DNA of 64,000 bases from an uncultured Clostridia bacterium (GTDB lineage Bacteria; Bacillota; Clostridia; TANB77; CAG-465): the NCBI GenBank assembly GCA_934130595.1, contig CAKOYF010000002.1, positions 49,989 through 113,988 of the forward strand, read 5' to 3'. Of this stretch, positions 15,460-64,000 are shown piece by piece. The notes beneath the pieces were generated by a model. The model was not told where the DNA came from. It saw only the letters and a program-made list of their open reading frames with translations, and did not search any database. Positions within the stretch are counted from its first letter, which is position 1, and each line of letters opens with the position of its first letter. A program made the position numbers and the translations under genes.

Positions 15460-15535
15460 TGGAGCTGAAACTCAGATTTGAACTGAGGACCTACGGTTTA
15501 CAAGACCGTTGCTCTACCAACTGAGCTATTCCAGC
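15460..15535 (-). tRNA. tRNA-Thr (anticodon UGU)
   Basis: Reverse complement GCTGGAATAGCTCAGTTGGTAGAGCAACGGTCTTGTAAACCGTAGGTCCTCAGTTCAAATCTGAGTTTCAGCTCCA folds as a cloverleaf. Anticodon loop is CTTGTAA and CCA is encoded. Confidence 0.93.
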
Positions 15536-15549
15536 AATATACTTTTTAA

Positions 15550-15624
15550 TGGTGACCCGTAGGAGAGTCGAACTCCTCACTCCGCCGTGAAAGGGCGATG
15601 TCTTAACCGATTGACCAACGGGCC
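15550..15624 (-). tRNA. tRNA-Glu (anticodon UUC)
   Basis: Reverse complement GGCCCGTTGGTCAATCGGTTAAGACATCGCCCTTTCACGGCGGAGTGAGGAGTTCGACTCTCCTACGGGTCACCA. Anticodon loop is CTTTCAC and CCA is encoded. Confidence 0.93.
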
Positions 15625-15631
15625 CCATTTG

Positions 15632-15707
15632 TGGTGAGCCATCGCAGATTCGAACTGCGGACAACTTGATTAAAAGTCAAGTGCTCTGCCAACTGAGCTA
15701 ATGGCCC
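15632..15707 (-). tRNA. tRNA-Lys (anticodon UUU)
   Basis: Reverse complement GGGCCATTAGCTCAGTTGGCAGAGCACTTGACTTTTAATCAAGTTGTCCGCAGTTCGAATCTGCGATGGCTCACCA. Anticodon loop is CTTTTAA and CCA is encoded. Confidence 0.93.
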
Positions 15708-25515: not shown

Positions 25516-25846
25516 GTTTTAGTATTCCAAATGATCGCTTGCTTTTGCAAGAGGAAAGTCCGGACACTATAGAGCAGGGTGCTAGATAACGTCTAGTGGA
25601 AGTGATTCTAAGGAAAGTGCAACAGAAAATTACCGCTATGTAAATAGTAAGGGTGAAAACGCGAGGTAAGAGCTCACGAGCAACTATGGAGACTTAGTTG
25701 CGGTGTAAACCCCACCTAGTGCAACGCCAGAATAAAACGTTAAGGTTGCTCGCTAAGTTTTGAGTTGGCGGCTTGAAATATATAGCAATATATATTCTAG
25801 ATAAATGATCATTAAATACAGAATCCGGCTTACGGAATGCTAAAAC
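25516..25846 (+). ncRNA. rnpB: RNase P RNA (bacterial, presumably Firmicute type B)
   Basis: Universal GAGGAAAGTCCGG (25551-25563) and ACAGAATCCGGCTTA near the 3' end. P1 helix gttttagtattcc (25516-25528) / ggaatgctaaaac (25834-25846). Confidence 0.9.
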
Positions 25847-25857
25847 ACCACAAATAT

Positions 25858-35472: not shown

Positions 35473-35501
35473 TTGAAAAAACGTAGAATATATTGTATAA
35501 T
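35473..35501 (+). promoter_or_regulatory. Near-consensus sigma-A promoter of the SRP RNA
   Basis: TTGAAA (35473-35478), 17-nt spacer, TATAAT (35496-35501). Confidence 0.7.
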
Positions 35502-35504
35502 AAT

Positions 35505-35590
35505 CTTATGCCAAGCGATAGAGTACTGTGAACCTTGTCAGATCCGGAAGGAAGCAGCAATAAGCAATATACTCTATGTGCTTGGTTTTT
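35505..35590 (+). ncRNA. ffs: Small (4.5S-type) signal recognition particle RNA
   Basis: Conserved domain-IV sequence GTCAGATCCGGAAGGAAGCAGC (35538-35559). Closing helices ccaagc/gcttgg and atagagta/tactctat. T-run at 35586-35591. Located directly upstream of dnaX as in other Firmicutes. Confidence 0.85.
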
Positions 35591-35610
35591 TGTTGTTTAG
35601 GAGGAAAAAA

Positions 35611-37152
35611 GTGGGATATATAGCATTATACAGAAAGTACAGACCAAATACTTTTGAAAATATAATTGGTCAAGAAAATGTAACAAGAATACTTAGAAAT
35701 CAAATAAAAAATGGAAAAATATCTCATGCATATTTGTTTAGTGGTACAAGAGGTACAGGTAAAACTAGTGCTGCTAAAGTATTTGCAAGGGCAATAAACT
35801 GTCTTAACCCAAAAGATGGTGAACCTTGTAATGAGTGTGAAGTATGTAAAGGAATTTTAAATGGAAATATTACAGATGTTATAGAAATGGATGCAGCTTC
35901 AAATAACAGTGTAGAAAATATTCGTCAAATTAGGCAAGAAGTGGTATATGCAACTGTTGATGTAAAATATAGAGTATATATTATAGATGAGGTACATATG
36001 CTTACAACAAGTGCTTTTAACGCACTACTTAAAACACTAGAAGAGCCACCAGAAAATGTAGTATTTATACTTGCAACAACTGAACAACATAAAATACCGG
36101 TTACAATTTTATCTAGATGTCTTAAGTTTGATTTTAACAGACTTACAGAAGAAGATTTATACAAGAGAATAACTTATGTACTAGACTGTGAACATGTAAA
36201 ATATGAAGAAGAAGCTTGTAGATATATAGCAACATTAGCAGATGGTGCGGCTAGAGATGCTCTTAGTATATTAGATAGATGTATATCTGAGACAGAAGAT
36301 GTATTAAGATATGAGGATGTACAAAATATTGTAGGTGCAATAGACAAAAAAGTTATTCAAAAAGTTGTTGAAAACGTTTTAAATTATGACTCAATAAATG
36401 CTATATCTGCAATAGATGAAGTTATTAAAAAAGGTAAAGATTTAAGACAATTTACTTTTGAACTTACAACAGAGTTCTTAAATAGATTAATAGCAGATAG
36501 TCAAAATACACAAAGATATGTTCAGATAATTGATAGATTATCTAGTTTAGATAATGATTTAAAATCTACAACAAGAAAAGAAATAGTTTTAAAAGCATGT
36601 ATTGTACAGCTTTGTAATGCACATCAGATATCTGAATCAACACCTGCACAAGGCGGACAAATAGATAAAATTTATATAAAGAAAATAGAAAATTTAGAAA
36701 ATGAAATAAAGAAGTTAAAAGAAAGTATTGGCAATAACAATGTTGTTGTTGAAAGAGTGGATAAAGAAGCTTCAAAGCCAAATATAAACATTAGTGCTAA
36801 AAAAATTACTAATGAAACAGAGGATGTAAGTGAAGAAAAATTAACTGAATTTCCTAATACAGAAGAATTGAAAAAAGCAGTTATTGAAAAAGGAAAGATA
36901 AAGTTGTATTCTGCTTTAGCTGGAGCAAAAGTATATGTAGATGATGTTGTAAGAATAATAACAACTAATTCATTTGGATATAAACTTTTAACTTTAGATG
37001 AAAATGCAGAAGTTATGGCGCAAATATTATATGAAAAATATAAAATTAATAAGAATATAATATTAGAATTAAAAACAGAATCAGGAGAATCTGTATCTAA
37101 AATTGAAAAAATATTTAAAGATAATAATATAGAATATACTAAATTAGATTAA
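35611..37152 (+). CDS. dnaX: DNA polymerase III subunit gamma/tau (GTG start)
   Basis: [16 protein letters not shown], Walker [10 protein letters not shown], zinc module CNECEVC, Walker B DEVHML, SRC motif. AGGAGG lies 6 nt upstream of the GTG. The ORF-track extension overlaps the SRP RNA. Confidence 0.93.
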
Positions 37153-51344: not shown

Positions 51345-54300
51345 ATGAAAAAAGCACTTTTAAAAGATAGTATAAAAGAAATTAAAAATACATATAAAAG
51401 ATTTTTGTCTATTATGCTTATGTCATTTTTAGGAGTAGGATTTTTTGCTGGAATTAGAGCTACTAGCCCAGATATGAAGGAAACTATAGATAATTATTTT
51501 AAAGATAAAAATGTATATGACATAGAGCTAATATCTACATTAGGATTAACAGATGATGATGTAAAAATACTAAGTAATAATGAGTATGTTTCAGATATAA
51601 TAGGAACATATTCTAAGGACTTCTTAGTAAAAGTATCTGAAAATGATGAACCAGTAGTAAAAGTAAATGCTATAGAAGATTTTAATGAATTAGAATTAAT
51701 TGATGGAAATTTACCAACAAGTGAAGATGAATGTGTAGTTGAGAAAAATTTCTTGAAGTTTAAAAATAAAAATATTGGAGATACAATTGAAATTATAGAT
51801 GAAGATGGAAATTTAAATGAAAAGAATCTAAAAATTGTTGGTACAATTGAAAGCCCACTATATGTATCAAGCGACAGAGGAACAAGTACTTTAGGAGCTG
51901 GGAAAGTAAATTATTATATGTATGTACCTCGTTCAAATTTCAATATGGAGGTATATACTCAAATATATTTAAAAGTAAAAGATTCAGAAAATTACATTAC
52001 CGGTTCAGATGAATATAATAGTTTAATTTCTGATGCTAAATCTAGTATAGAACAATATAAAGACGAAATAAATACTAGAAGATACGATGAATTAATAACT
52101 AAGGCAAATGATAAAATTAATGAAGCACAATCAGAGTTAGATACAGAGCGTGAAAGTAATCAAAAGAAAATAGATGATGCTCAGTCAGAAATAGATGGAT
52201 ATAAAACACAATTAGAAAATGCAAAGGCAGAGCTAGAGAAAAATAGAAAGCAAATATATAACACGTTTTTAGATTATGAAAATCAGATTCAAGAAGGAAA
52301 AACAAAAATTGAAAATGCTCAAACACAGCTAGAAAGTCAAAAAACAAAAGCACAGCAAAGTATATCACAAGCAAATGAAGCAAAAACAATGCTCCAGCAA
52401 AATATAGATGAAATAGACAGAAACTTAGCTATAATAGAAAGTAAGTATAATGATGCATTTAATGCATTAGAAAATCCTGGAGATTTATCAGAAGATGATA
52501 TAAATTATTTAAAAGGGTTAATGGTAGAACTTACAACAGAAAAAGAGAGTCTTGAGCAAAATAAAGAATTAATTAATGAAAAAATATATAATATAGATGC
52601 TACAATATATCAAATAAATGAGAGCATTGAAAATGCACAAAATACAATAACAGATCAGAAAATATTATTAACTCAAAAGGAAAACGAATTAGAAGTATCA
52701 AAACAGCAAGCAAATAATGAACTAGATAATGCACAAGAAGAGTTAAATAGTAAACAGAGAGAGCTAGAAGACAGTCAAAAAGAATTAGATGATAATAAAG
52801 AAGAGTTTGATAATAAAATTAAAGAGGCACAAGACAAAATAATAGATGCAAAAGAGGAAGCATTAAATATTGAAAAACCTAAATTATACATTTTAGAAAG
52901 AGAAGATAATACAGGATATAGTGGGTTTATACAAGATACACAGAGTATGGAAAATATAGGAAAAGTTTTCCCAGTAGTATTTTTTGTAGTAGCTACATTA
53001 ATAAGTTTAACTTCTATGACACGTATGGTTGAAGAGCAAAGACAACAAATTGGAACTTTGAAAGCATTAGGTTATACAAAAATGCAAATATCTATGAAGT
53101 ATATATTATATGCAAGCCTTGCAACAGTAATTGGTGGAATACTAGGAATGTGTTTATGTTTCTATCTTCTTCCTAAAATAATCTGGATGATGTATGGAAT
53201 GATGTATGCTATTCCAAATTTTGTTATTAGATTTAATGTTAAAATAGCAATATTAGGTATGGCTTGCTCTATAATTTGTATAGTTGGAGCTACAGTATAC
53301 GCATGTATGAAAGAGTTAATTGAAAGACCAGCTGTACTAATGAGACCAAAGGCTCCAAAGAGTGGAAAAAGAGTTATATTAGAAAAAATACCTTTTATTT
53401 GGAATAAGATGAATTTCACAACAAAAGTTACAGTAAGAAATATGTTTAGGTATAAAAAGAGATTTTTAATGACTATAATTGGAATATTTGGTTGTACTTC
53501 AATGATATTATTTGGATTTTTACTTAAAGATTCAGTTGCTAATATTGTAAATAATCAATATGGAAAAATCTTTAATTATAATTTTATAGTAACTTCTAAA
53601 GAGTCTTTGACATTTGAGGATATAGATGAACTAAAAAGTGAAGTCCTAGAAAAAGATTATGTGGATAAATCTGTTTTAGTAGATTTAACATCTGCAAGTG
53701 TAACAAATGGAGAAAAAACAGAAGATGTTCAGATAATTGTTCCAGATAATAAAGAAGAGTTATATGATTTAGTTAATTTCTTAGATCTAAAAGAAAACAA
53801 AGTAACTATAGAAAACGACGGAGTATTGCTTACAGATAAAGCTGCTAGTATACTTGGAGTAAGTTCAGGAGATACTATAACAGTTATAACAAACGATGAT
53901 AAAGAAATTGATGTAAAAATACAAGGCGTTGTAAAAAACTATGTATATCATTATATGTATATGTCAAAAGATGTATATGATCAGATCTTTGGAGATTATT
54001 CAACAAACGGAATGTTAATAAGAACTCATGATATGACTGATGAACAAAAAGATGAAGTAGCAAAAGAAATAATGGCAAATAGTAAAGTGGCATCAGTAAC
54101 AAACATAGATAGTTTGAAATCAACAATAGATGATATGATGAGCTTGATGAAATATGTAGTATGGGTATTAATAGTATCCGCTGGACTATTAGCATTTGTA
54201 GTGTTATATAATTTAGCAACTGTAAATATTAGTGAAAGAATAAGGGAACTTGCTACAATTAAAGTATTAGGCTTTTATGATAATGAAGTATATAAATATG

Positions 54301-54548
54301 TTTCAAAAGAGACATCAATCCTAACATTTATAGGAATTTTAATGGGAATGTTTGGAGGAGTTATATTAAATGCTTTTATACTTAAAACTTGTGAAATAAA
54401 TGTTTTAAGATTTGAAGCTAAGTATAACTGGTATGCATTCATAATAGCAGCTTTAATTACAATAGTATTTACAATTATTGTTAATATAGCAACATATTTT
54501 GCACTTAAGAAAATAAATATGATAGAATCATTAAAGAGTGTAGAATAA
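51345..54548 (+). CDS. FtsX-family (MacB-type) ABC permease with two 4-TM modules and a long coiled-coil extracytoplasmic insert
   Basis: Two FtsX-like TM blocks (about aa 545-660 and 940-1060). The region at about 52110-52870 encodes roughly 250 aa of uninterrupted Q/E/N/K-rich coiled coil. Confidence 0.85.
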   Translation: MKKALLKDSIKEIKNTYKRFLSIMLMSFLGVGFFAGIRATSPDMKETIDNYFKDKNVYDIELISTLGLTDDDVKILSNNEYVSDIIGTYSKDFLVKVSENDEPVVKVNAIEDFNELELIDGNLPTSEDECVVEKNFLKFKNKNIGDTIEIIDEDGNLNEKNLKIVGTIESPLYVSSDRGTSTLGAGKVNYYMYVPRSNFNMEVYTQIYLKVKDSENYITGSDEYNSLISDAKSSIEQYKDEINTRRYDELITKANDKINEAQSELDTERESNQKKIDDAQSEIDGYKTQLENAKAELEKNRKQIYNTFLDYENQIQEGKTKIENAQTQLESQKTKAQQSISQANEAKTMLQQNIDEIDRNLAIIESKYNDAFNALENPGDLSEDDINYLKGLMVELTTEKESLEQNKELINEKIYNIDATIYQINESIENAQNTITDQKILLTQKENELEVSKQQANNELDNAQEELNSKQRELEDSQKELDDNKEEFDNKIKEAQDKIIDAKEEALNIEKPKLYILEREDNTGYSGFIQDTQSMENIGKVFPVVFFVVATLISLTSMTRMVEEQRQQIGTLKALGYTKMQISMKYILYASLATVIGGILGMCLCFYLLPKIIWMMYGMMYAIPNFVIRFNVKIAILGMACSIICIVGATVYACMKELIERPAVLMRPKAPKSGKRVILEKIPFIWNKMNFTTKVTVRNMFRYKKRFLMTIIGIFGCTSMILFGFLLKDSVANIVNNQYGKIFNYNFIVTSKESLTFEDIDELKSEVLEKDYVDKSVLVDLTSASVTNGEKTEDVQIIVPDNKEELYDLVNFLDLKENKVTIENDGVLLTDKAASILGVSSGDTITVITNDDKEIDVKIQGVVKNYVYHYMYMSKDVYDQIFGDYSTNGMLIRTHDMTDEQKDEVAKEIMANSKVASVTNIDSLKSTIDDMMSLMKYVVWVLIVSAGLLAFVVLYNLATVNISERIRELATIKVLGFYDNEVYKYVSKETSILTFIGILMGMFGGVILNAFILKTCEINVLRFEAKYNWYAFIIAALITIVFTIIVNIATYFALKKINMIESLKSVE

Positions 54549-55768: not shown

Positions 55769-56092
55769 ATGAAAGAGACGGTATATGTTTTTAGACTAGA
55801 TTCACAAAATAGAATTTTGGTACCATTAATGGCTCGGCAAATATACGGGTTTGAAGATGATGTGTATCTGAAATTACAAGTGATAGATGGTGAGAAATAC
55901 TTGCAAATATCTGGTAGAGAGATTCAGTTCTTTCAATCTATGTCTAAGTTAGACGAAAAAGGACGATTTAGCGTTCCAAAAGAAGTAAGGGAAAAGCTTG
56001 AATTTAGTCCACATCAAGAGTTTGATTCTTACGAAGAAGAGATTGATAGCAATAATAGAACTTTATTACTCAAAAAGGTATACAGAAGATGA
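55769..56092 (+). CDS. Tandem AbrB/SpoVT-like (MraZ-like pseudo-dimer) small DNA-binding protein
   Basis: Two internal repeats of the swapped-hairpin signature: LDSQNRILVPLMARQIYG and LDEKGRFSVPKEVREKLEF. Confidence 0.45.
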   Translation: MKETVYVFRLDSQNRILVPLMARQIYGFEDDVYLKLQVIDGEKYLQISGREIQFFQSMSKLDEKGRFSVPKEVREKLEFSPHQEFDSYEEEIDSNNRTLLLKKVYRR

Positions 56093-56115
56093 AGGGGATT
56101 CCCTTCATTTTTTGT
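56089..56115 (+). terminator. Rho-independent terminator
   Basis: atgaaggg gatt cccttcat hairpin overlapping the stop codon, then a T-run. Confidence 0.75.
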
Positions 56116-56197
56116 TTTATATAAAAAAATAAAAGACTTCATTTTTGAAAAAATGTGTGATATAATATACCTCCGTAAGAAAATTGGAGGGATAGCA

Positions 56198-56623
56198 ATG
56201 GAATGGAATCAAATGATACCAGAATTTGATGTTTTTGATTTAAAAGAGAGTTTACATTTTTATATAGATTTAATTGGTTTTCATGTAGAATATGATAGAA
56301 AAGAAAATAAATTTGCTTTTTTGCAACTTGAAAAAGTTCAAATTATGATACAGGAAATAGACAAAGAAAATAATAAATGGGGAACAGGAAAATTAGAATA
56401 CCCACTAGGAGTTGGAATAAATTTTCAAATAGATGTAACTAACATAGATGAAATTTATGGTAGACTTAAAGAGGCAAAATATCAAATTTTTGTAGAAATG
56501 GAAGATCACTGGTACAGAAAAGATAATGTTTTAATGGGATGTCGTGAATTTTTAGTTCAAGATCCTAACGGATTTGTATTAAGATTTAGCCAAGACCTTG
56601 AAAATAGACCAGTAGAAGAATAA
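56198..56623 (+). CDS. VOC-superfamily protein (glyoxalase / bleomycin-resistance fold)
   Basis: IPEFDVFDLKESLHFYIDLIGF...FLVQDPNGFVLRF, a typical beta-alpha-beta-beta-beta module pair. ATG at 56198 follows GGAGGG. Confidence 0.68.
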   Translation: MEWNQMIPEFDVFDLKESLHFYIDLIGFHVEYDRKENKFAFLQLEKVQIMIQEIDKENNKWGTGKLEYPLGVGINFQIDVTNIDEIYGRLKEAKYQIFVEMEDHWYRKDNVLMGCREFLVQDPNGFVLRFSQDLENRPVEE

Positions 56624-56637
56624 TTAGAAAAATATCT

Positions 56638-56676
56638 AAATAAAGCTTAGTTTTTTAACTAAGCTTTATTTTTTTG
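56638..56676 (+). terminator. Strong Rho-independent terminator marking the left edge of the atypical operon
   Basis: Perfect 15-bp stem aaataaagcttagtt (56638-56652) / aactaagctttattt (56657-56671), loop tttt, T-run. Confidence 0.85.
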
Positions 56677-56689
56677 CAAATCATTTGCA
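56675..56689. promoter_or_regulatory. Perfect palindrome TGCAAAT-C-ATTTGCA upstream of the operon promoter (candidate operator)
   Basis: 7-bp arms, centre at 56682, 19 nt upstream of the -35 hexamer. Confidence 0.3.
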
Positions 56690-56707
56690 CATAAAAGTCG
56701 ATTTTCC

Positions 56708-56736
56708 TTGACTTTTAGGCTACATAATTGTATAAT
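56708..56736 (+). promoter_or_regulatory. Near-consensus sigma-A promoter of the atypical operon
   Basis: TTGACT (56708-56713), 17-nt spacer, TATAAT (56731-56736). Leaves a leader of about 125 nt before the ATG at 56866. Confidence 0.7.
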
Positions 56737-56865
56737 AATTCCGATTATCAAATTTTATATCCGTTTTTTAATGATTTTTACGGACTTTAATGTATGTGTA
56801 ATTACACTGCAGATTCGATAGTCAAACAATATTAGTAGATGAACTTTTTAAAGGAGGAGAAGCTT

Positions 56866-58227
56866 ATGAGAAAAATTTCTAAAGCAGAGTATGTTTCCCT
56901 TCGTAAGAAGGGATCGAACTACATGACTTTACCTGTTCATGACGAAAGACTGCAAAAGCAATTAGCCGAGTCTGGCATAGAACTCAATATGTTTCTTAAA
57001 CAGCCTCTAGAAAAAATTCGAGATTGGCAACTAAGAAGAATTAGCTACTTAGTAGACTATGCTTTTGAAAACATTCCTTTATATAGGAAAAAATATTCAG
57101 AAGTAGGTTATACAAAAGGTAGTATAAGAACATGGGATGACTTTTTTAAGTTACCTTATCTTAGAAAAGAGGAATTAATCGAAGGATTTCCAGGAGAGAT
57201 TGTTAAAGATGTTGATGATTTTATGCTATCAACTCGTAGTTCTGGATCTAGTGGAAAATTTGTAACTATCGCGGTTTCAGAAGAAGCTATATATAAAGAT
57301 ACGTTACAAACTATTAGACAGTTCAATATGCAGTCTGGTGGAAAGTATCAAGCAGATGATACTATTCTTTACATTTATACTTGCCCTTGGTGGGTAGATA
57401 ATGTAGGAGGAAAGTATAGGCAAGATTACTTGCCAACCACAACTAGAGTTGAAGACGCTGTTGAATATATCAAGAGCACAAAACCTAGATATATTTCAAC
57501 TTATCCAACTTACCTTGAAAAAATAGCATCGACTGGTGTTAAACTTTCAGATTATGGGGTAGAGCTGGTTATTGTTCATTCTGAGCAATCAGATGCAAAA
57601 CAGCGTAGAATGTTGAGTGAGGCTCTTAATGTAGAAGTTCTTGATGAATATAGTAGTGAAGAACTAACAAGAATTGCATTAGAGTGTCCAAAACATCACT
57701 ATCATCTTGAAGAAGATGCTTGCTTTATCGAAATAGTAGATAAAGACGGTAATAAACTTCCAGATGGTGAAATTGGAATTGTAGTAGGTACAAACCTTTT
57801 AAATACTGCAACGCCAATAATTCGTTATATCCAAGGTGATCTTGCAAAGATTACCGAAATTCAAGAATGTGAATGTGGAAGTAACGGAAGAATAATCGAG
57901 GGGGTTAAAGGTCGTAATATGGACTCAGTAATAACTGAAACTGGTGAATGCGTTCCAGCATCATGTTTTATGGATTTAGCATATAACTGGTTTTTAGTTT
58001 ATGAGATTCCTGTTCACGGTCTTAAGTATCAATTCATTCAGCCAGAGATAGGAAAACTTGATCTTTATATAATAGAAGGAGAGTATTCTTTAGATCTGGA
58101 TGCTATCAAAGAAAGTATATATACTTTGATGCCACGAACAACACAAGTAACTGTTAATTGTGTGGATAAATTGCCTTATGACAAAGGTACAAAGTATAGG
58201 CCAGTTATTAGCTATGTTAGGAGGTAA
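56866..58227 (+). CDS. PaaK/CapK/F390-synthetase-type adenylate-forming ligase
   Basis: STRSSGSSGKFVTI (phosphate-binding loop), EYSSEE, PIIRYIQGDLA, C-terminal KYRPV. RBS AAAGGAGGAG. Confidence 0.72.
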   Translation: MRKISKAEYVSLRKKGSNYMTLPVHDERLQKQLAESGIELNMFLKQPLEKIRDWQLRRISYLVDYAFENIPLYRKKYSEVGYTKGSIRTWDDFFKLPYLRKEELIEGFPGEIVKDVDDFMLSTRSSGSSGKFVTIAVSEEAIYKDTLQTIRQFNMQSGGKYQADDTILYIYTCPWWVDNVGGKYRQDYLPTTTRVEDAVEYIKSTKPRYISTYPTYLEKIASTGVKLSDYGVELVIVHSEQSDAKQRRMLSEALNVEVLDEYSSEELTRIALECPKHHYHLEEDACFIEIVDKDGNKLPDGEIGIVVGTNLLNTATPIIRYIQGDLAKITEIQECECGSNGRIIEGVKGRNMDSVITETGECVPASCFMDLAYNWFLVYEIPVHGLKYQFIQPEIGKLDLYIIEGEYSLDLDAIKESIYTLMPRTTQVTVNCVDKLPYDKGTKYRPVISYVRR

Positions 58228-58232
58228 GTAAT

Positions 58233-59456
58233 ATGAGCCATTTGTTTGAAACCAAATTAGCATGCAAAAATACTGCATTTATTGAAGCTTCTGCATTAGT
58301 AGAGGATAAAATTAAGCAGTTGCGTGCTAATACACCAAATTTGCCTTTTGAAAAAACTAAACTTGCAGAAGTTGAAATAAATAAGTTTTTTTATGAAGGT
58401 AAAACTGTAGACAGAGTTATGATTGTTTTGAGATCCAACGGGTGTCAACATTATAAAACTAATGGAGGCTGCTCAATGTGTGCACATTTAAATGGAGCAC
58501 CACTTATGGAGAAAATAACACATCAGAACTATGTTGAACAGTGGAATTCAGTGCTTGACGGAAGTTTCATTGAGGTTAGTAACTCTAGTTTTAATCTTAA
58601 TGATTATCCTGTAGTTTGTGTGTACAACCTTGGAAGTCTGTTAAATCCTGAGGAGATTTCAGTAGAAACTGTAAAATACATTTTTGAAACATTAAATGCG
58701 TATAAAGGTGTAAAAAAAGTTATTGTTGAATCTCGAGCAGAATATGTAACAGATGATATTTTGAAAGCTATTCGTAGTGTATATGATGGAGTTGTTGAAG
58801 TAGGAATTGGAGTTGAATCAACCGATTTTTATATAAGAGAACTTTGTCATCACAAAGCAATTCTTGATACTAAGATTATTAAAGAAGCTGTTGAAAATTT
58901 GCATAAGTATGGTATGAAAGCTTTAGCTTATGTTAATTTTAAGCCAGTATTTTTAACAGAATCTGAAGCAATTAAAGATGCTATTACAACATCAGTAGAT
59001 TGTTTTAAAGCATTCGGTTTTGATGCTGTTTCTATCGAGCCTACATCTTTGCAGGAAAATTCACTTGCAAACTATATGTATGATTTAGGTTTGTATAGAG
59101 TTCCATGGCTTTGGAGCTTAAGAGATATTATTCATGGTATCTATGAAGCAACAGATTCTAATAAATTAGATATTAGACTTGGTGGATACTTTGATGAAGA
59201 AGTATTAAGCGGTAGTCAAGGTACAGGTTTTGCAGAAAGAAATGAGATTTTCCCACATATGACTTCAAGTAATTGTAGTTATTGTACTAATGAGTTTGTC
59301 AATGCTATTAAGCAATTTAACATGACGTATGATGTGAGTGATTTAGACAAGGTAAAACCATGTCCACATTGTTACAGTTTGTGGCAGGACACTAAGAAGA
59401 TACGTGATTCTAGAAGCATTTTTGATCGTGTAAAAGATGTTCTTGGAAAGGAGTGA
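58233..59456 (+). CDS. Radical-SAM-like protein with a non-canonical C-x8-C-x2-C cluster motif (Elp3/TIGR01210-like branch?) and a C-terminal CxxC...CxxC
   Basis: VLRSNGCQHYKTNGGCSMC (Cys71/80/83, nt 58443-58481). TIM-barrel-like alternation. C-terminal NCSYC...PCPHC. RBS AGGAGG lies inside the end of the upstream gene. Confidence 0.5.
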   Translation: MSHLFETKLACKNTAFIEASALVEDKIKQLRANTPNLPFEKTKLAEVEINKFFYEGKTVDRVMIVLRSNGCQHYKTNGGCSMCAHLNGAPLMEKITHQNYVEQWNSVLDGSFIEVSNSSFNLNDYPVVCVYNLGSLLNPEEISVETVKYIFETLNAYKGVKKVIVESRAEYVTDDILKAIRSVYDGVVEVGIGVESTDFYIRELCHHKAILDTKIIKEAVENLHKYGMKALAYVNFKPVFLTESEAIKDAITTSVDCFKAFGFDAVSIEPTSLQENSLANYMYDLGLYRVPWLWSLRDIIHGIYEATDSNKLDIRLGGYFDEEVLSGSQGTGFAERNEIFPHMTSSNCSYCTNEFVNAIKQFNMTYDVSDLDKVKPCPHCYSLWQDTKKIRDSRSIFDRVKDVLGKE

Positions 59457-59464
59457 GACTTTCT

Positions 59465-60559
59465 ATGAAATTAGTTTGTGAAATTTGTAACAAAGAATTT
59501 GATTATCCTATGGAACAAATTAAACATAGACATAGTGAAGTCGAGCTTGATTTGGTTCCACCAAATTTTTGGAGAATAAAAGATTATCTTCCAGATTTTG
59601 AAATTAAACTTTCAGACAAGAAGATAGTTTATCCAAAACTTAAGGCAAAGAGCAGACTAAAAGCTCAAGATACACCACTAATTAAGTATTCTGAAAACAT
59701 ATTCTTAAAGGATGAATCTGTTAATCCAACAGGAAGCTTTAAGGATCGTGGTATGGATAACTTGATGAATGAAATATTAATGAGCAAAAAGAAAAAAGTA
59801 GCTGTAGTTTCTTGTGGAAGTGGTGCAATTTCTGTTGTGCGCTATGCAAAAGAATACGGTATAACATCACAAGTTTTTGTTCATAAAGGCGTTTCAAAGT
59901 CGAGTTTGGACAAAATTAAAGATGCAGATGAGGTCTTTTATAGTGAAACATTTATAAAAAGCTATGAAGACTTTATGAGATATTCACTAGTACACGATGA
60001 AGTTTACTGGGGATTCTTAAATACAAATATTTCATATATGCTAGGTCTTAGGGCTATGGCTTATGAAATTATTAGAGATATGAAAAAAGTCCCTGATGTA
60101 GTAATCATCCCTTGTGGAAGCGGAATGGACATCATTGCTCAGAATTTAGCATTTAGAGAAATGTATAATGCTAAAAAAATATCTAAAATTCCTAAGATTG
60201 GAGTAGTTGAAATTGAAGGAGGAAATCCTATCAAAAGAGGATTTGAAAGTAGAGTAGAAGGTTATTTATATGTAATAGATGATCCAGTTGACTCAAAAAC
60301 AATTCTTTCAAATGATACTTGCTTTAATTACAGGAAGATTTATGATATGGCAAATCGCGATGAGGCTTTTTTTATATCTGTTAGTGATGCACAAATAGAT
60401 GAATTTATTATGAAGCATCCAGAATTTGGTGCTAAGTATGATTACACATCTATTAGTGCTATGGCAGCGTTAGTCGAGTATGAAAAGAGTAACAAAGATG
60501 ATGTAGTGGTTGTAGTGTTAACGTGTAAAAACAGAAATGGAGGTATCTTTTATGAGTAA
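59465..60559 (+). CDS. Threonine-synthase-like fold-type-II PLP enzyme
   Basis: NPTGSFKDRGM (PLP lysine motif), CGSGAIS and IPCGSGMD glycine-rich loops, N-terminal CEIC...HRH. Confidence 0.72.
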   Translation: MKLVCEICNKEFDYPMEQIKHRHSEVELDLVPPNFWRIKDYLPDFEIKLSDKKIVYPKLKAKSRLKAQDTPLIKYSENIFLKDESVNPTGSFKDRGMDNLMNEILMSKKKKVAVVSCGSGAISVVRYAKEYGITSQVFVHKGVSKSSLDKIKDADEVFYSETFIKSYEDFMRYSLVHDEVYWGFLNTNISYMLGLRAMAYEIIRDMKKVPDVVIIPCGSGMDIIAQNLAFREMYNAKKISKIPKIGVVEIEGGNPIKRGFESRVEGYLYVIDDPVDSKTILSNDTCFNYRKIYDMANRDEAFFISVSDAQIDEFIMKHPEFGAKYDYTSISAMAALVEYEKSNKDDVVVVVLTCKNRNGGIFYE

Positions 60560-61811
60560 TGATCATAAAGAAAAACTTACAATGTCACAATATTTTGATA
60601 TTGGACTTGAAAGACATGCACTCTTGATGGATGCATCTAATCTGGATTGGTTTACGTTTCCTCTTTTTTCTTGTATAAGAAATGAGATTTATAGAACGCT
60701 TGAAGATCCAGATGAAGATATGGACTGGGGATATTCTTATCCTGGTGGAAAGAGCCGTTTAAGAGAGCTTATCTCAATGCATGAATCATTTATCGAAGGA
60801 GAAGAAATAACTCCTGACGAGGTAATCGTAGGTGGTAACGGTACAACAGGAACTTTGAATTTCATTGCTCAAATAATTGCAAGAGAATATCATTTTGCAA
60901 ATGACATTGAAATTATATATCCTGTTCCTGCTTACGCTGGTCTTAAAAAAAGCTTAACATTTTATGGAATTGTTCCAAAAGTTATGCCTATGGATAAGGC
61001 AAATGATTATAAGATGAAGCTTGAAGATGTTAAGAAAGCGTATACGGAAAAAACAGTTGCACTTTTGATTACAAATCCTGCAAATCCGGCTTGCAAGTTC
61101 ATAGATGAGGACGAGCTTAAAAAGATTGTGGAGTTTTGCATAGAAAAAAACATCTATATTATTTATGATGCTATTTTTGAAGAAGCTCCTATGTTTAATA
61201 ATAAGCGAGTTCAAATTTTTAAACTTGCTCATGATTACAGTAAGCTCATAAAAATAAAGGGGTTTAGCAAAGATATCCCACAGCTTAGTGATTTAAGATG
61301 CGGTTGGACAATTTGTAAAAATCCTAAGTTTATTGAGTGGCTGTTAGAACTTGGCGAGGCTGTAAACTATTCTAATTCTACTTTTCTTGAAGCGTTAGGA
61401 ATAGTTGAAATGACTCAAAGAGTTAATGTGGATAAAGGGGATAAATCTCCTGAAACACTTGAGTATATTGCTCAGAAAGAGCAGTATCATAACCAAATAA
61501 TTACTCTTTTTAATGATGCATACAAGTACTTGATGTCCCAAAAGGATGTTGTGGAAAATGTAGTATATCCAGATGCTGGAAATATTATGTATGTTACATT
61601 AAAAAAAGAGGCTTGTAACAAAAAAGGTGTATACACATCACATGAACTTTTTGTTTATATTCTTGAAAAAGAAAATATTCTGGTTACTCCTGGTAATGTT
61701 TTTGGTATTCCTTTGGAAGACTTAAGCTTTAGAGTAACTATTTCTAGAGGATATGAGCAGTTTATGGATGGTTTAAAGCGCATTGTTGAATTGTTTAAGG
61801 AGGAAAGGTAA
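60552..61811 (+). CDS. Class I/II (fold-type-I) aminotransferase
   Basis: NPANPAC, YDAIF, KGFSKDIPQLSDLRCGW (SxSK...R motif). 8-nt ATGAGTAA overlap with the upstream gene. Confidence 0.78.
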   Translation: MSNDHKEKLTMSQYFDIGLERHALLMDASNLDWFTFPLFSCIRNEIYRTLEDPDEDMDWGYSYPGGKSRLRELISMHESFIEGEEITPDEVIVGGNGTTGTLNFIAQIIAREYHFANDIEIIYPVPAYAGLKKSLTFYGIVPKVMPMDKANDYKMKLEDVKKAYTEKTVALLITNPANPACKFIDEDELKKIVEFCIEKNIYIIYDAIFEEAPMFNNKRVQIFKLAHDYSKLIKIKGFSKDIPQLSDLRCGWTICKNPKFIEWLLELGEAVNYSNSTFLEALGIVEMTQRVNVDKGDKSPETLEYIAQKEQYHNQIITLFNDAYKYLMSQKDVVENVVYPDAGNIMYVTLKKEACNKKGVYTSHELFVYILEKENILVTPGNVFGIPLEDLSFRVTISRGYEQFMDGLKRIVELFKEER

Positions 61812-62698
61812 TGAGAAATACATTTCTTGAACTTGAAACAAAGCCGATGCGTTCTTGTGATTTTTGCTTTCTAGGTATTAACTATTGCAGCGCAGAGTAT
61901 CTTTCAGGTGTTGAAAAGGCAGCAAAAAAAGTAAGAGCTTTATCTTATAGATATGCTAATGCTGATGGAACTGCTATTCCACTTAAGGTGTATAGTCCCG
62001 AAGAAGGATATATCTTAAAAGATACAATAGCTTGTGATTTAGGAAATGTATGTGCATCTAGTCTGAAAGAGTTAGGTAAGAAATTATCTAAAATACATCT
62101 TCAGGCTGGATGTATTCCAGTTTTTGTAGGCGGAGATCATAGTGTGACGTATGAGCTTGTTAAAAGAATGGCAAAAAACTATGGCAACATTGTTGTAGTT
62201 CAGTTTGACGCTCACAGTGATTTTATTGATGAGTTTGAGGATTATCCACATGGTTCAGTAATGAACGAAACTAGTAAGTTAGATAACGTATCTAGAATTG
62301 TTCATTTTGGAATTAGAGGTAACCTTAACAGTGGACCGGCTATTTGCCAAAGCAAAGAGAAAGGAAATTATGTTATACCATATATTAAGATTGAAGAAGA
62401 GTTTGAAAAGCTTTTAAGATATCTTGAAGGTAAAAACGTATATATTACGTTTGATACGGATTTTCTTAATCCTGCTTATGCACCGGCTACTAATTGTCCT
62501 GAACCTGGCGGCCCTTCATATGAAGATGCTCTTAAATATTTAAAATCAATTATTAATGCTTCCGGCAGTGTGATTGGTATGGATTTTGTAGAGTACAATC
62601 CTGAATGTGAGGGATCTGAGGTAACAGGAACAACAATTGCTAATTTGATCATGGAGTCATTAAGCTACATGACAAAGAAGAAACACACTACTACGTAA
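61811..62698 (+). CDS. Ureohydrolase (arginase/agmatinase/amidinohydrolase family) with complete Mn-binding motifs
   Basis: GGDHSVTY, QFDAHSDF, TFDTDFLNP, DFVEYNP. TAATG overlap with the upstream gene. Confidence 0.85.
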   Translation: MRNTFLELETKPMRSCDFCFLGINYCSAEYLSGVEKAAKKVRALSYRYANADGTAIPLKVYSPEEGYILKDTIACDLGNVCASSLKELGKKLSKIHLQAGCIPVFVGGDHSVTYELVKRMAKNYGNIVVVQFDAHSDFIDEFEDYPHGSVMNETSKLDNVSRIVHFGIRGNLNSGPAICQSKEKGNYVIPYIKIEEEFEKLLRYLEGKNVYITFDTDFLNPAYAPATNCPEPGGPSYEDALKYLKSIINASGSVIGMDFVEYNPECEGSEVTGTTIANLIMESLSYMTKKKHTTT

Positions 62699-62720
62699 CT
62701 TATAGAATGGAGGAATAACT

Positions 62721-64000
62721 ATGTTAGATGTAGAACTTAGTAATGTTACGCTAAATTATGGATTTAAAAACATCTTAGATGGAGCAACATTCCAGGTTAA
62801 CAGTGGTGACAAAGTTGCTATTGTTGGTGATAACGGAACTGGAAAAACTTCGATTTTTAAACTCATTGTCGCTGAGGAAAAGCCTAGTAGTGGTATTGTA
62901 TCTAAAAGAAAAGATGCAACTATTGGACTTTTGACGCAGATTGCTCCCAAGGCAGAAGACGGACTTAGTGTTCGAGATTTCTTAAAGACTGCATATAGTG
63001 ATATTGCAGATCTTCAAAGAAAGCTTCGTCAGCTTGAAAGCGTTATGGGTGACCCTAATGTTACACCTGAAGAGCTTGAAAAAGCAATGAATGCTTATGG
63101 TAAAGCTCAGGATCTTTTCATGGATAAGGGTGGATACGAAGTAGATTCCAATATCGAAAAGATGGCTGGTAATCTTAAGATTAGTGAAATGCTGGATCAG
63201 GAGTATAACTCTCTTAGCGGTGGCCAGAAGACAATTGTATGTCTTGCTAGAATGCTGTTACAGAAACCAGATATTTTACTTTTGGATGAACCTACCAACC
63301 ACTTGGATATTCCAACTCTTGGTTGGCTTGAAGATTTTATCAAAGGATACACTGGATCTGTGATTTTAATATCACATGACAGATATTTTTTGGATAGAAC
63401 TGTAAACAAGGTTTTTGCTATCGCAGATGGCAAAATCAAGACTTACTTTGGAAATTATACTCAGTATGTCGAAGCACTTGCTTTAGAAAAAGAAGCACAG
63501 GAACAGGCCTATGTAACTCAGCAGAAAAAGATTGCTGGCATGGAAGATACTATTCGTAAGAATAGAGCTTGGGGTGCTCAGAGTTCTGAAAAGGCTTATA
63601 GAGTTGCTAAGCAGCTTGAAAGACGTATTGACGAAATGGAAAAAGTTGAAAAGCCTAAGACTCAAAGAGATATCGCTTTGAACTTTAGCCAGGAGACTAG
63701 ATCTGGTAATGATGTATTAAAGCTTGAAGATATGTGTTTTTCTTACAATGGTGATGATATCATTCTTTGTGGAGGAAACTTAGAGCTTGAATATCAGGAC
63801 AAGGTTTGTCTTCTTGGTAAAAATGGTTGTGGTAAATCTACTGTTCTTAAAATTGTTTTAGGACAGATTAAGAACTATGATGGAAAGGTAACAATTGGCA
63901 GCAATGTTAAGATTGGTTACTTACCACAGCATGTCTCTTTTGAGAATGAAGATGAAACAATTCTTCAGGAGTTCCAAAAACATTTTACTGGCAACTTAAC
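62721..64000 (+). CDS. ABC-F family ATPase (3' end lies outside the window)
   Basis: No TM segments. Walker A GDNGTGKTS, signature LSGGQK, Walker B LLLDEPTNHLD, charged inter-domain linker (YVEALALEKEAQEQAY...EKVEKPK), second Walker A GKNGCGKST. RBS GGAGG. Absent from the ORF track because it runs off the window. Confidence 0.9.
   Translation, partial: MLDVELSNVTLNYGFKNILDGATFQVNSGDKVAIVGDNGTGKTSIFKLIVAEEKPSSGIVSKRKDATIGLLTQIAPKAEDGLSVRDFLKTAYSDIADLQRKLRQLESVMGDPNVTPEELEKAMNAYGKAQDLFMDKGGYEVDSNIEKMAGNLKISEMLDQEYNSLSGGQKTIVCLARMLLQKPDILLLDEPTNHLDIPTLGWLEDFIKGYTGSVILISHDRYFLDRTVNKVFAIADGKIKTYFGNYTQYVEALALEKEAQEQAYVTQQKKIAGMEDTIRKNRAWGAQSSEKAYRVAKQLERRIDEMEKVEKPKTQRDIALNFSQETRSGNDVLKLEDMCFSYNGDDIILCGGNLELEYQDKVCLLGKNGCGKSTVLKIVLGQIKNYDGKVTIGSNVKIGYLPQHVSFENEDETILQEFQKHFTGNL

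Follow-up and report, generated by a model that had tools for sequence, protein, structure and literature searches.

A candidate nonribosomal-peptide-synthetase-independent gene cluster of uncultured gut Clostridia that pairs an adenylating ligase with a RaSEA-like radical SAM enzyme and an ABC-F protein

Introduction

RaSEA, a radical S-adenosylmethionine (SAM) enzyme of Euryarchaeota, is active only in complex with ArcS, which transfers lysine, and it processes the lysyl adduct (PMC11298593). Here we describe an operon in a 64,000-nucleotide stretch of DNA, called the window below, from an uncultured Clostridia bacterium (assembly GCA_934130595.1, contig CAKOYF010000002.1, positions 49,989 to 113,988), in which a RaSEA-like gene (g2) directly follows the gene of a PaaK/CapK-type adenylate-forming ligase (g1). 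The pair is followed by genes encoding a fold-type-II pyridoxal phosphate (PLP) enzyme (g3), a PLP aminotransferase-fold enzyme (g4), a ureohydrolase (g5), an ABC-F ATPase (g6) and, past the window end, a decarboxylase (g7). As in the ArcS-RaSEA system, g2 aligns to the RaSEA model TIGR01210 over nearly its full length, retains the three-cysteine motif and always has the gene of a group-transferring partner beside its own. Unlike that system, the partner is an ATP-dependent PaaK-type ligase rather than the tRNA-guanine transglycosylase (TGT)-like ArcS, and there is no tRNA or 7-deazaguanine context, the neighbors being small-molecule enzymes.

Each of the other genes also has described counterparts. 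The ligase g1 shares its fold and adenylation motifs with PaaK and with the natural-product ligases of this type (AjiA1/NatL2, BagE/FevW, FlxY), although the NCBIfam models of PaaK, FlxY and BagE/FevW give it only ~37–110 bits against cut-offs of 300–800. ABC-F proteins are found in antibiotic producers, where LmrC is a regulatory precedent (PMC8546547). Like the ABC-F proteins of antibiotic clusters (LmrC, OleB, CarA, SrmB, TlrC, Ard1), g6 is co-transcribed with biosynthetic enzymes, whereas its host is an uncultured gut Clostridia bacterium and not an actinomycete. Compared with the named antibiotic resistance (ARE) ABC-F proteins VmlR, PoxtA and OptrA, g6 passes a generic protection-like model only.

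In clavulanate synthesis arginine serves as a masked ornithine, and proclavaminate amidinohydrolase unmasks the arginine-derived amine. Like that enzyme, g5 is agmatinase-like, has all of the metal ligands and lies in a putative biosynthetic operon with an adenylating enzyme; its match to the amidinohydrolase structure (1gq6, 2e-16) is a fold-level similarity only. The clavulanic acid enzymes CEAS, beta-lactam synthetase and clavaminate synthase are absent from the operon, and the host is anaerobic. GntC of guanitoxin synthesis, VioD of capreomycidine synthesis and the beta-methylarginine aminotransferase are among the better models for g4, GntC being the best, although the partner hydroxylases of the GntC and VioD systems are absent around g4. 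Pathways of the tabtoxin type are nonribosomal peptide synthetase (NRPS)-independent and recruit paralogues of lysine-pathway enzymes; tabtoxin itself targets glutamine synthetase. The likeness to tabtoxin is one of pathway logic: this cluster and its relatives likewise combine a LysA-like decarboxylase with an aminotransferase, an adenylating enzyme and an ATP-grasp ligase, and the relatives add GNAT and peptidase functions for self-protection or activation. The tabtoxin cluster differs in that it is not known to contain an ABC-F protein or a RaSEA-like enzyme.

In our best reading, the operon directs the NRPS-independent synthesis of a small amide-linked metabolite. This metabolite probably has arginine or lysine as its origin and, probably again, the ribosome as its site of action. 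A biosynthetic cluster that carries an ABC-F protein is, as a general kind, already known. The enzymatic core, the hosts (uncultured gut anaerobes, bacteria of the candidate phyla radiation (CPR) and archaea) and a structured leader RNA are new. Full-text searches of the available literature turned up no account of the gene set, nor of a biosynthetic role for RaSEA-like enzymes of bacteria, in agreement with an initial annotation, made from the sequence alone, that recognized no described counterpart.

Results

An adenylating ligase and a RaSEA-like enzyme form the invariant core

The motifs from which g1 had been read as a PaaK/CapK-type ligase are in place (SSGSSGKF, the P-loop, at aa 125 and RYIQGD at aa 320), and the protein matches PaaK in the PDB (4r1l, 2.6e-23) as well as AjiA1. 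Its divergence from these families is considerable. There is no Pfam match; the NCBIfam PaaK and DVU_1553 models score ~110 bits, far under their cut-offs (300–700), and the PaaK models give 107–109 bits against equivalog cut-offs of 646–700, which places g1 outside PaaK proper. No paa genes lie nearby.

The protein g2 had been called radical-SAM-like on account of a C-x8-C-x2-C motif. The motif is present (C71, C80 and C83) and its cysteines are invariant in the family alignment, and the assignment could be narrowed to a RaSEA-like enzyme invariantly paired with a ligase. Pfam Radical_SAM gives only 19.7 bits, whereas TIGR01210 gives 191.2 bits over a near full-length alignment, short of the cut-off of 212.15 for RaSEA membership. 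Identity to archaeal RaSEA-type genes is 27–33%, and g2 carries a clade-specific insertion of ~19 aa. Among 1.84 billion proteins the family has 1141 representatives (E ≤ 0.001), from which the g2 clade is sharply set off, with at least 49% identity inside the clade and at most 39% outside.

A scan of one genome per prokaryotic species gave 31 loci of this clade. In all 31, g1 lies directly upstream of g2; in the loci checked, the two genes overlap by as much as 11 nt or are separated by up to 13 nt. The annotated cluster genes and conserved neighbors of the 31 loci include no ArcS- or TGT-like gene. Neither g1 nor g2 has an extra RNA- or protein-binding domain, and their lengths agree with those of PaaK and RaSEA.

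More distant members of the RaSEA family were also encountered. A bacterial RaSEA-like gene in L038 lies directly 3' of an NRPS C-A-PCP-TE module, and another in L050 is grouped with an alanine racemase, an ABC-2 exporter and PaaK-like and RimK-like ligases. Outside the window, two distant family proteins (P0206 and P0236) are fused to TIR domains and a third (P0171) to a DDAH/arginine-deiminase-like domain; these fusions hint at further uncharacterized roles of the RaSEA family.

The core, with an ABC-F gene in bacteria, persists while the tailoring genes change

The clade loci fall into two variants. Variant A consists of g1, g2, g3 and g5, usually with g4 and g7, which are present or absent jointly; g3 is found in every variant-A locus, including the minimal L030 and L031. 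This variant occurs in ~14 species-level metagenome-assembled genomes (MAGs) of one low-GC gut Clostridia family, where g1–g6 plus g7 are arranged within conserved flanks. It is also found in gut Bacilli (L032, L086 and L085), in a Shapirobacteria (CPR) genome (L031) and on four archaeal contigs (L026, L027, L029 and L030), of which L029 was confirmed as archaeal by its split RNA polymerase A'/A'' genes. The gene order in L032 and L086 is DUF6271, g1, g2, g3, g4, g7, g5, a methyltransferase gene and the ABC-F gene. Across phyla and domains, then, the genes stay together as a set, though in changing order.

Variant B, from gut Bacilli, Christensenellales-like and Lachnospiraceae MAGs, retains g1 (sometimes duplicated), g2 and the ABC-F gene, with the tailoring genes replaced. 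The new genes encode a 'variant' radical SAM enzyme plus an ATP-grasp ligase, an ArgE-like M20 hydrolase, a GNAT protein and a radical SAM/SPASM protein; some loci add ADI/DDAH-like, MoaA-like, lysine-aminomutase-like, methyltransferase and MATE genes. The radical SAM and ATP-grasp pair was considered as a pyrrolysine-like PylB/PylC pair and rejected, there being no match to either model. Transporters occur in the relatives (MATE in L028, EamA in L026, and ABC-2 with a GT2 glycosyltransferase in L085), as do Ddl-like ligases (L027 and L031), and a C39-like peptidase gene closes three of the archaeal clusters.

The marks of a secondary-metabolite cluster are thus found across the loci: co-location through rearrangement, patchy taxonomy and resistance or export genes, although the window copy itself has no exporter. 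Because there is an invariant core with variable tailoring genes, with transporters, a patchy cross-domain spread and changes of order without dispersal, the pattern is, to judge from gene content, that of a diversifying biosynthetic gene cluster.

The ABC-F protein probably links the gene set to the ribosome

The window ends within g6. On NF000355 ('ribosomal protection-like ABC-F'; cut-off 380) its full-length form, taken from a 99.8% identical contig, reaches 463.7 bits. It is far under the cut-offs of the named ARE subfamilies (Vga, Lsa, Msr, Sal, OptrA, CplR, TlrC/CarA) and is roughly equidistant from Uup, EttA, YheS, PoxtA and YbiT. Every bacterial locus of the clade with sufficient flanking sequence has an ABC-F gene no more than a few genes away from the cluster, and at least five different arrangements occur.

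To ask whether ABC-F proteins of the g6 type occur without such clusters, we sampled seven g6 relatives of 45–70% identity. All seven are encoded in or beside biosynthetic-type gene runs. Three belong to the present cluster (L084, L085 and L086); in the other four loci the ABC-F gene comes last or second-last in a different operon of biosynthetic appearance (L087–L090), which encodes a nucleoside deoxyribosyltransferase-like protein, radical SAM enzymes, DegT aminotransferases and an APH kinase; one of these loci adds a methyltransferase, and some add MazG- or PHP-like proteins. To judge from these genes, the second operon looks like a nucleoside-antibiotic cluster. In a rough neighbor-joining tree the cluster-linked ABC-F proteins group apart from the 630-aa ABC-F protein encoded farther downstream. 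Since the linkage outlasts several independent rearrangements and holds in 7/7 sampled relatives, chance adjacency is unlikely.

The archaeal clusters have no ABC-F gene. In two of them there is instead a gene for a divergent TGS-domain GTPase of the Obg/Drg type, which is translationally coupled into the operon and differs in position between the two. The lysine-rich N-terminal 100 residues of the archaeal GTPase weakly match the linker region of ABC-F models (22 bits), which may be compositional. Because the ABC-F gene persists across the bacterial loci and sampled relatives and a translation-type GTPase occurs in two archaeal clusters, the link of the gene set to the ribosome is robust. The ABC-F linkage may reflect protection, regulation (as for LmrC) or a functional partnership.

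The tailoring enzymes are divergent members of their superfamilies

Assignment with Pfam and NCBIfam hidden Markov models gave the families that had been read from the open reading frames (ORFs), with every one of g1–g5 under the cut-offs of all curated named families. The fold-type-II PLP reading of g3 holds, with GSFKDRG (the PLP-lysine motif) at aa 90 and a PALP match at 1.9e-31; the best ThrC model gives 97.4 bits against a cut-off of 301, so that g3 is not a threonine synthase by that measure. For g4, taken to be a fold-type-I aminotransferase, GFSKD was located at aa 237 and LRCGW at aa 248, and Aminotran_1_2 matches at 7.8e-29. The best NCBIfam model of g4 is GntC, an arginine-derivative cyclodehydratase (120.6 bits against a cut-off of 415), and VioD also matches (62.3 bits against 390.9); neither cut-off is reached. 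A 3-methylarginine (beta-methylarginine) aminotransferase model also matches, and a PDB sequence search with g4 returned generic aminotransferases only. The ureohydrolase reading of g5 was likewise borne out: all four motifs were found (GGDHS, DAHSD, DTDFLNP and EYNP), of which GGDHS, DAHSD and DTD give a complete set of binuclear Mn ligands and place the protein in the ureohydrolase superfamily, and Pfam Arginase matches at 1.2e-48 (166 bits). With the agmatinase model TIGR01230 the score is 132.6 bits, where SpeB membership requires 174.3.

Because every score lies under the curated family cut-offs, g1–g5 are, on the evidence of the models, divergent superfamily members and not housekeeping enzymes. 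An arginine/guanidino theme runs through the gene set: the best models of g4, the ureohydrolase g5, the ADI/DDAH-like and ArgE-like genes of variant B, and the DDAH-like fusion of a distant RaSEA-family protein. This recurrent guanidino/ornithine theme points to a precursor of the arginine type.

Operon structure and a seventh gene past the window end

The start codons of g1–g6 were re-set to those with a ribosome-binding site (RBS) in front, and every start has one of GGAGG type. The features and their coordinates are collected in Table 1.

Table 1 Features of the operon and of related loci (window coordinates unless a locus is named)
Feature	Coordinates	Strand	Remarks
VOC/glyoxalase/bleomycin-resistance-like gene, 156 aa	56153..56623	+	Pfam, NCBIfam matches
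Intrinsic terminator of the upstream gene, insulates operon	56638..56676	+	15-bp stem then T tract
Sigma-70-type promoter, TTGACT-17-TATAAT	56708..56736	+	11/12 match
Structured 5' leader RNA	56737..56865	+	three-way junction, covariation
Leader helix P1	56743-56749 with 56817-56823
Leader helix P2	56760-56764 with 56780-56784
Leader helix P3	56795-56799 with 56804-56808
g1, PaaK/CapK-type adenylate-forming ligase, 453 aa	56866..58227	+	core enzyme
g2, RaSEA-like radical SAM enzyme, 407 aa	58233..59456	+	core enzyme
g3, threonine-synthase-like fold-type-II PLP enzyme, 364 aa	59465..60559	+	PALP
g4, class I/II PLP aminotransferase-fold enzyme, 419 aa	60552..61811	+	Aminotran_1_2
g5, agmatinase-like ureohydrolase, 295 aa	61811..62698	+	Arginase
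g6, ABC-F ATPase	62721..64000 (window end; runs beyond)	+	558 aa in full on near-identical contig
Second operon with ABC-F gene	L087 645-11452		gut metagenomes; ABC-F 45-47% identical to g6
Second operon with ABC-F gene	L088 1-10665		gut metagenomes; ABC-F 45-47% identical to g6
Second operon with ABC-F gene	L089 84-10695		gut metagenomes; ABC-F 45-47% identical to g6
Second operon with ABC-F gene	L090 1248-11437		gut metagenomes; ABC-F 45-47% identical to g6
TGS-domain GTPase in archaeal operon	L029 7697-8617
TGS-domain GTPase in archaeal operon	L030 13242-14168

The expression signals proposed in the initial annotation were found where it had put them. The hairpin of the upstream terminator occupies 56638-56671 with the T tract directly 3', and an equivalent hairpin is seen in related loci. 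The promoter is the top plus-strand match of the region, lies in its sole sizeable intergenic gap, and has both its -35 and -10 boxes kept across 15 related loci. Note that promoter-like matches as a class are not enriched (42 observed against 41.5 expected in shuffled sequence). The junctions from g1 to g6, remeasured at +5, +8, -8, -1 and +22 nt, are as tight as had been claimed; the 8-nt overlap of g3 and g4 (60552-60559) reads ATGAGTAA, and that of g4 and g5 is TAATG. No convincing internal terminator was found on the plus strand of the operon, only two 5-bp stems without a true T run, as expected from the earlier reading that no hairpin or T-run intervenes.

The description of the operon as six co-directional genes was right for g1–g6 and too short in extent. 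An identical g2 protein is present on many metagenome contigs, and we used contigs with 2 and 32 mismatches to the window over 15.8 kb to extend the operon past position 64000. There the ABC-F gene is followed after 87 nt by a gene for a LysA-like decarboxylase (g7, 403 aa). A hairpin with a weak T run takes up part of the 87-nt spacer, in which a promoter would not fit; a strong terminator and a new promoter appear only 3' of g7, ahead of the second, 630-aa ABC-F gene. On TIGR01048 the decarboxylase reaches 221.9 bits, short of the cut-off of 297.9, and it has no match to the carboxynorspermidine decarboxylase model. It belongs to the gene set, because the distant versions carry g7 within the cluster. 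On contig L001, which differs from the window in only two bases over the 15.8 kb, the gene of an FtsX-type permease (1069 aa; L001 3113-6316, window 51345-54548) was called as two pieces, as was g4 (L001 12320-13579, window 60552-61811). Both base differences appear to be nonsense changes or sequencing errors.

A structured leader RNA precedes the operon in one Clostridia family

The RNA between the -10 box and the start codon of g1 forms three helices arranged as a three-way junction, followed by a near-invariant tract that extends into the g1 RBS. RNAalifold analysis of 11 loci gave 96.3% of cells paired with compensatory changes in 10/17 pairs. None of 500 shuffles reached the observed values, and slid controls were 28–45% paired. 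A covariance model of the leader matches upstream of g1 in five loci outside the seed (L013–L015, L084 and L091) and nowhere else. A metagenome scan with a degenerate pattern gave one more real copy, upstream of the same operon; four other matches to the pattern failed the covariance model. The leader has no Rfam match even at a permissive E of up to 1, and is restricted to one Clostridia family, where it stands in front of this operon only.

A leader peptide or attenuator was considered and rejected: the ATG in the P2 loop has no RBS, the frame is broken by indels among relatives and no terminator follows the leader. The leader is a candidate cis-regulator, either a new riboswitch or a protein-binding leader, and because no terminator follows it, it likely acts by translational control.

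Discussion

We hold with moderate confidence that the gene set makes a small molecule and is functionally linked to translation, and with much less confidence any individual chemical step. The initial annotation had left open whether the operon builds or degrades a modified amino acid or amide-linked metabolite. Comparative genomics supports such a metabolite, whose identity is read from homology, and building is favored over degrading.

In the pathway that we propose, the promoter and leader would drive translationally coupled g1–g6, with g7 following g6 without a promoter of its own. The ligase g1 would use ATP to activate a carboxylate and couple it to an amine, which may be the side-chain amine of an amino acid of the lysine, ornithine or arginine type. 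On the model of RaSEA, g2 would then carry out radical chemistry on the attached side chain, probably in complex with g1. A building block, amino acid or amine, would be made or tailored by g3 (a ThrC-like beta/gamma-replacement), g4 (GntC/VioD-like) and g7, and g5 would turn a guanidino group into an amine with loss of urea, in the manner of proclavaminate amidinohydrolase. The ABC-F protein g6 would protect or tune the producer's own ribosomes, the VOC protein encoded upstream may bind the product, and the leader RNA probably governs the initiation of translation, responding to a ligand or a protein.

Several observations weigh against this biosynthetic reading. We infer the product, the substrates and the target, and take all of the chemistry from fold-level homology. 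A protective role of g6 is not established by its sequence, which has no extended inter-domain linker and no match to a named ARE subfamily, and the tree that sets the cluster-linked ABC-F proteins apart was built without reference housekeeping subfamilies. There is no transporter gene in the window's own operon. Throughout one Clostridia family (L004–L016 and L020) the cluster and its flanks are kept, which looks like what a lineage-specific housekeeping function would give. The raised GC content of the operon (31.5–36% against ~27–28% over the rest of the window, the rise lying within 56001–64000), which we count in favor of the biosynthetic reading, could also reflect nothing more than conserved protein-coding sequence.

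The alternative that survives best, which we think unlikely, is that the operon serves to modify part of the translation machinery and makes no diffusible compound. The enzymes g3, g4, g5 and g7 would make a moiety resembling an amino acid or a polyamine that g1 ligates to a translation factor, a ribosomal protein or a tRNA and g2 remodels, as EpmA/EpmB act on EF-P and ArcS/RaSEA on tRNA, with the ABC-F protein in bacteria or the Obg/Drg-like GTPase in archaea as the target or functional partner. The sole characterized relative of g2 is a tRNA-modification enzyme, and the beta-lysylation of EF-P is a precedent for pairing a ligase with a radical SAM enzyme. A translation-associated NTPase is linked in both domains (the ABC-F protein, and the TGS GTPase in two archaeal loci), and the system is found in reduced-genome lineages (CPR, Woesearchaeota and gut Bacilli). 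However, the absence of an extra RNA- or protein-binding domain from g1 and g2 fits this poorly, and a fixed modification would not be expected to come with tailoring sets as different as those of the variants. The MATE, ABC-2 and EamA transporters, the GT2 enzyme, the pairs of GNAT and ArgE-like proteins and the duplicated g1 of the relatives typify small-molecule pathways, and close relatives of g6 are also encoded in the unrelated nucleoside-type cluster with its APH kinase.

A lineage-specific primary-metabolic route, with the ABC-F gene as a mere neighbor, is distinctly unlikely in our view. It could be amino-acid synthesis or salvage, or a polyamine pathway in which a ThrC-like gamma-replacement is followed by decarboxylation and a ureohydrolase step (compare the carboxyaminopropylagmatine route to spermidine). 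The pairing of a decarboxylase with an agmatinase-like enzyme is a classic one for polyamines; g3, g4 and g7 are paralogous to ThrC, DapL-type aminotransferases and LysA of the aspartate family, and the cluster and its flanks are conserved vertically in one Clostridia family. Against this, all of the enzymes fall under equivalog cut-offs, g7 is LysA-like, with no match to the carboxynorspermidine decarboxylase model, and the distribution across domains is patchy. Such a route would also leave the ligase and radical SAM core, the exporters and the GNAT and M20 genes unexplained, and the survival of the ABC-F linkage through rearrangements and in 7/7 relatives argues against chance adjacency. 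In its canonical form the polyamine reading was rejected: g5 is under the SpeB cut-off and g7 under that of LysA, and the carboxynorspermidine decarboxylase model gives no match.

Very unlikely is a catabolic or detoxifying island directed at an external guanidino- or amidino-containing ribosome-targeting antibiotic, with the ABC-F and VOC proteins as protection: the ABC-F, bleomycin-binding-like VOC, GNAT and M20 hydrolase genes are resistance-type functions and ureohydrolases and DDAH-like enzymes do cleave guanidines, yet the ATP-dependent ligases (g1, ATP-grasp, Ddl-like), radical SAM enzymes, methyltransferases and glycosyltransferases are anabolic features, the MATE and ABC-2 transporters of the relatives are exporter types with no uptake system evident, and related radical SAM genes lie beside NRPS and ligase genes.

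Two further readings were rejected outright. Anti-phage defense found no PADLOC match for g1–g5 or g7 and generic ATPase matches for the ABC-F protein only, and the TIR fusions are confined to distant RaSEA-like proteins outside the g2 clade. A RiPP (a peptide ribosomally made and modified post-translationally) with a peptide arginase has no space for its precursor gene, the only sizeable gap being the leader, which has no conserved ORF.

Returning to the biosynthetic reading, its parts can be joined into a broader one, which we offer tentatively and as doubtful in its entirety: a family of NRPS-independent ligase/radical-SAM clusters for ribosome-targeting metabolites, spanning both domains. 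Its hosts would be gut Firmicutes, CPR bacteria and DPANN or methanogenic archaea. An enzyme of the RaSEA type, known so far only from archaeosine synthesis in tRNA, would process an amino-acid adduct made by the ligase. The producer's ribosomes would be protected by a dedicated ABC-F clade in bacteria and by an Obg/Drg-like TGS GTPase in archaea, and in the Clostridia lineage a new riboswitch-like leader class would control expression.

If the biosynthetic reading is correct, abundant uncultured gut Clostridia and Bacilli, and even CPR bacteria and archaea, make an unseen class of translation-targeting small molecules, and the RaSEA family gains a second function, in small-molecule biosynthesis. 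A PaaK-type ligase combined with a radical SAM enzyme of the RaSEA type would probably escape standard cluster-mining rules, and the ABC-F clade would be a handle for mining ribosome-targeting compounds in anaerobes. The same clade may also be a gut reservoir of target-protection resistance genes. The leader, for its part, would be an orphan structured RNA with a ligand open to discovery.

Flanking genes and other features of the window

The VOC protein encoded upstream of the operon matches Pfam Glyoxalase (26 bits) and, weakly, the NCBIfam bleO model of bleomycin-binding proteins (32 bits). A homologue adjoins the cluster in the loci of the Clostridia family, in the archaeal L030 and in the CPR L031, and the protein is a possible binding or immunity protein. 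Two genes upstream of the operon (55769-56092) a 107-aa protein with weak AbrB/MraZ-type matches is encoded, which is kept at the same position in several related loci (L004–L008) and may be a regulator.

At gathering thresholds Rfam finds only RNase P RNA, signal recognition particle (SRP) RNA and three tRNAs in the whole window (15463-15707, 25519-25847 and 35507-35592), and because it carries these genes the window is chromosomal. The first ~120 nt of a 559-aa ORF (35473-37152) overlap the SRP RNA gene, so the TTG start listed for that ORF is probably spurious.

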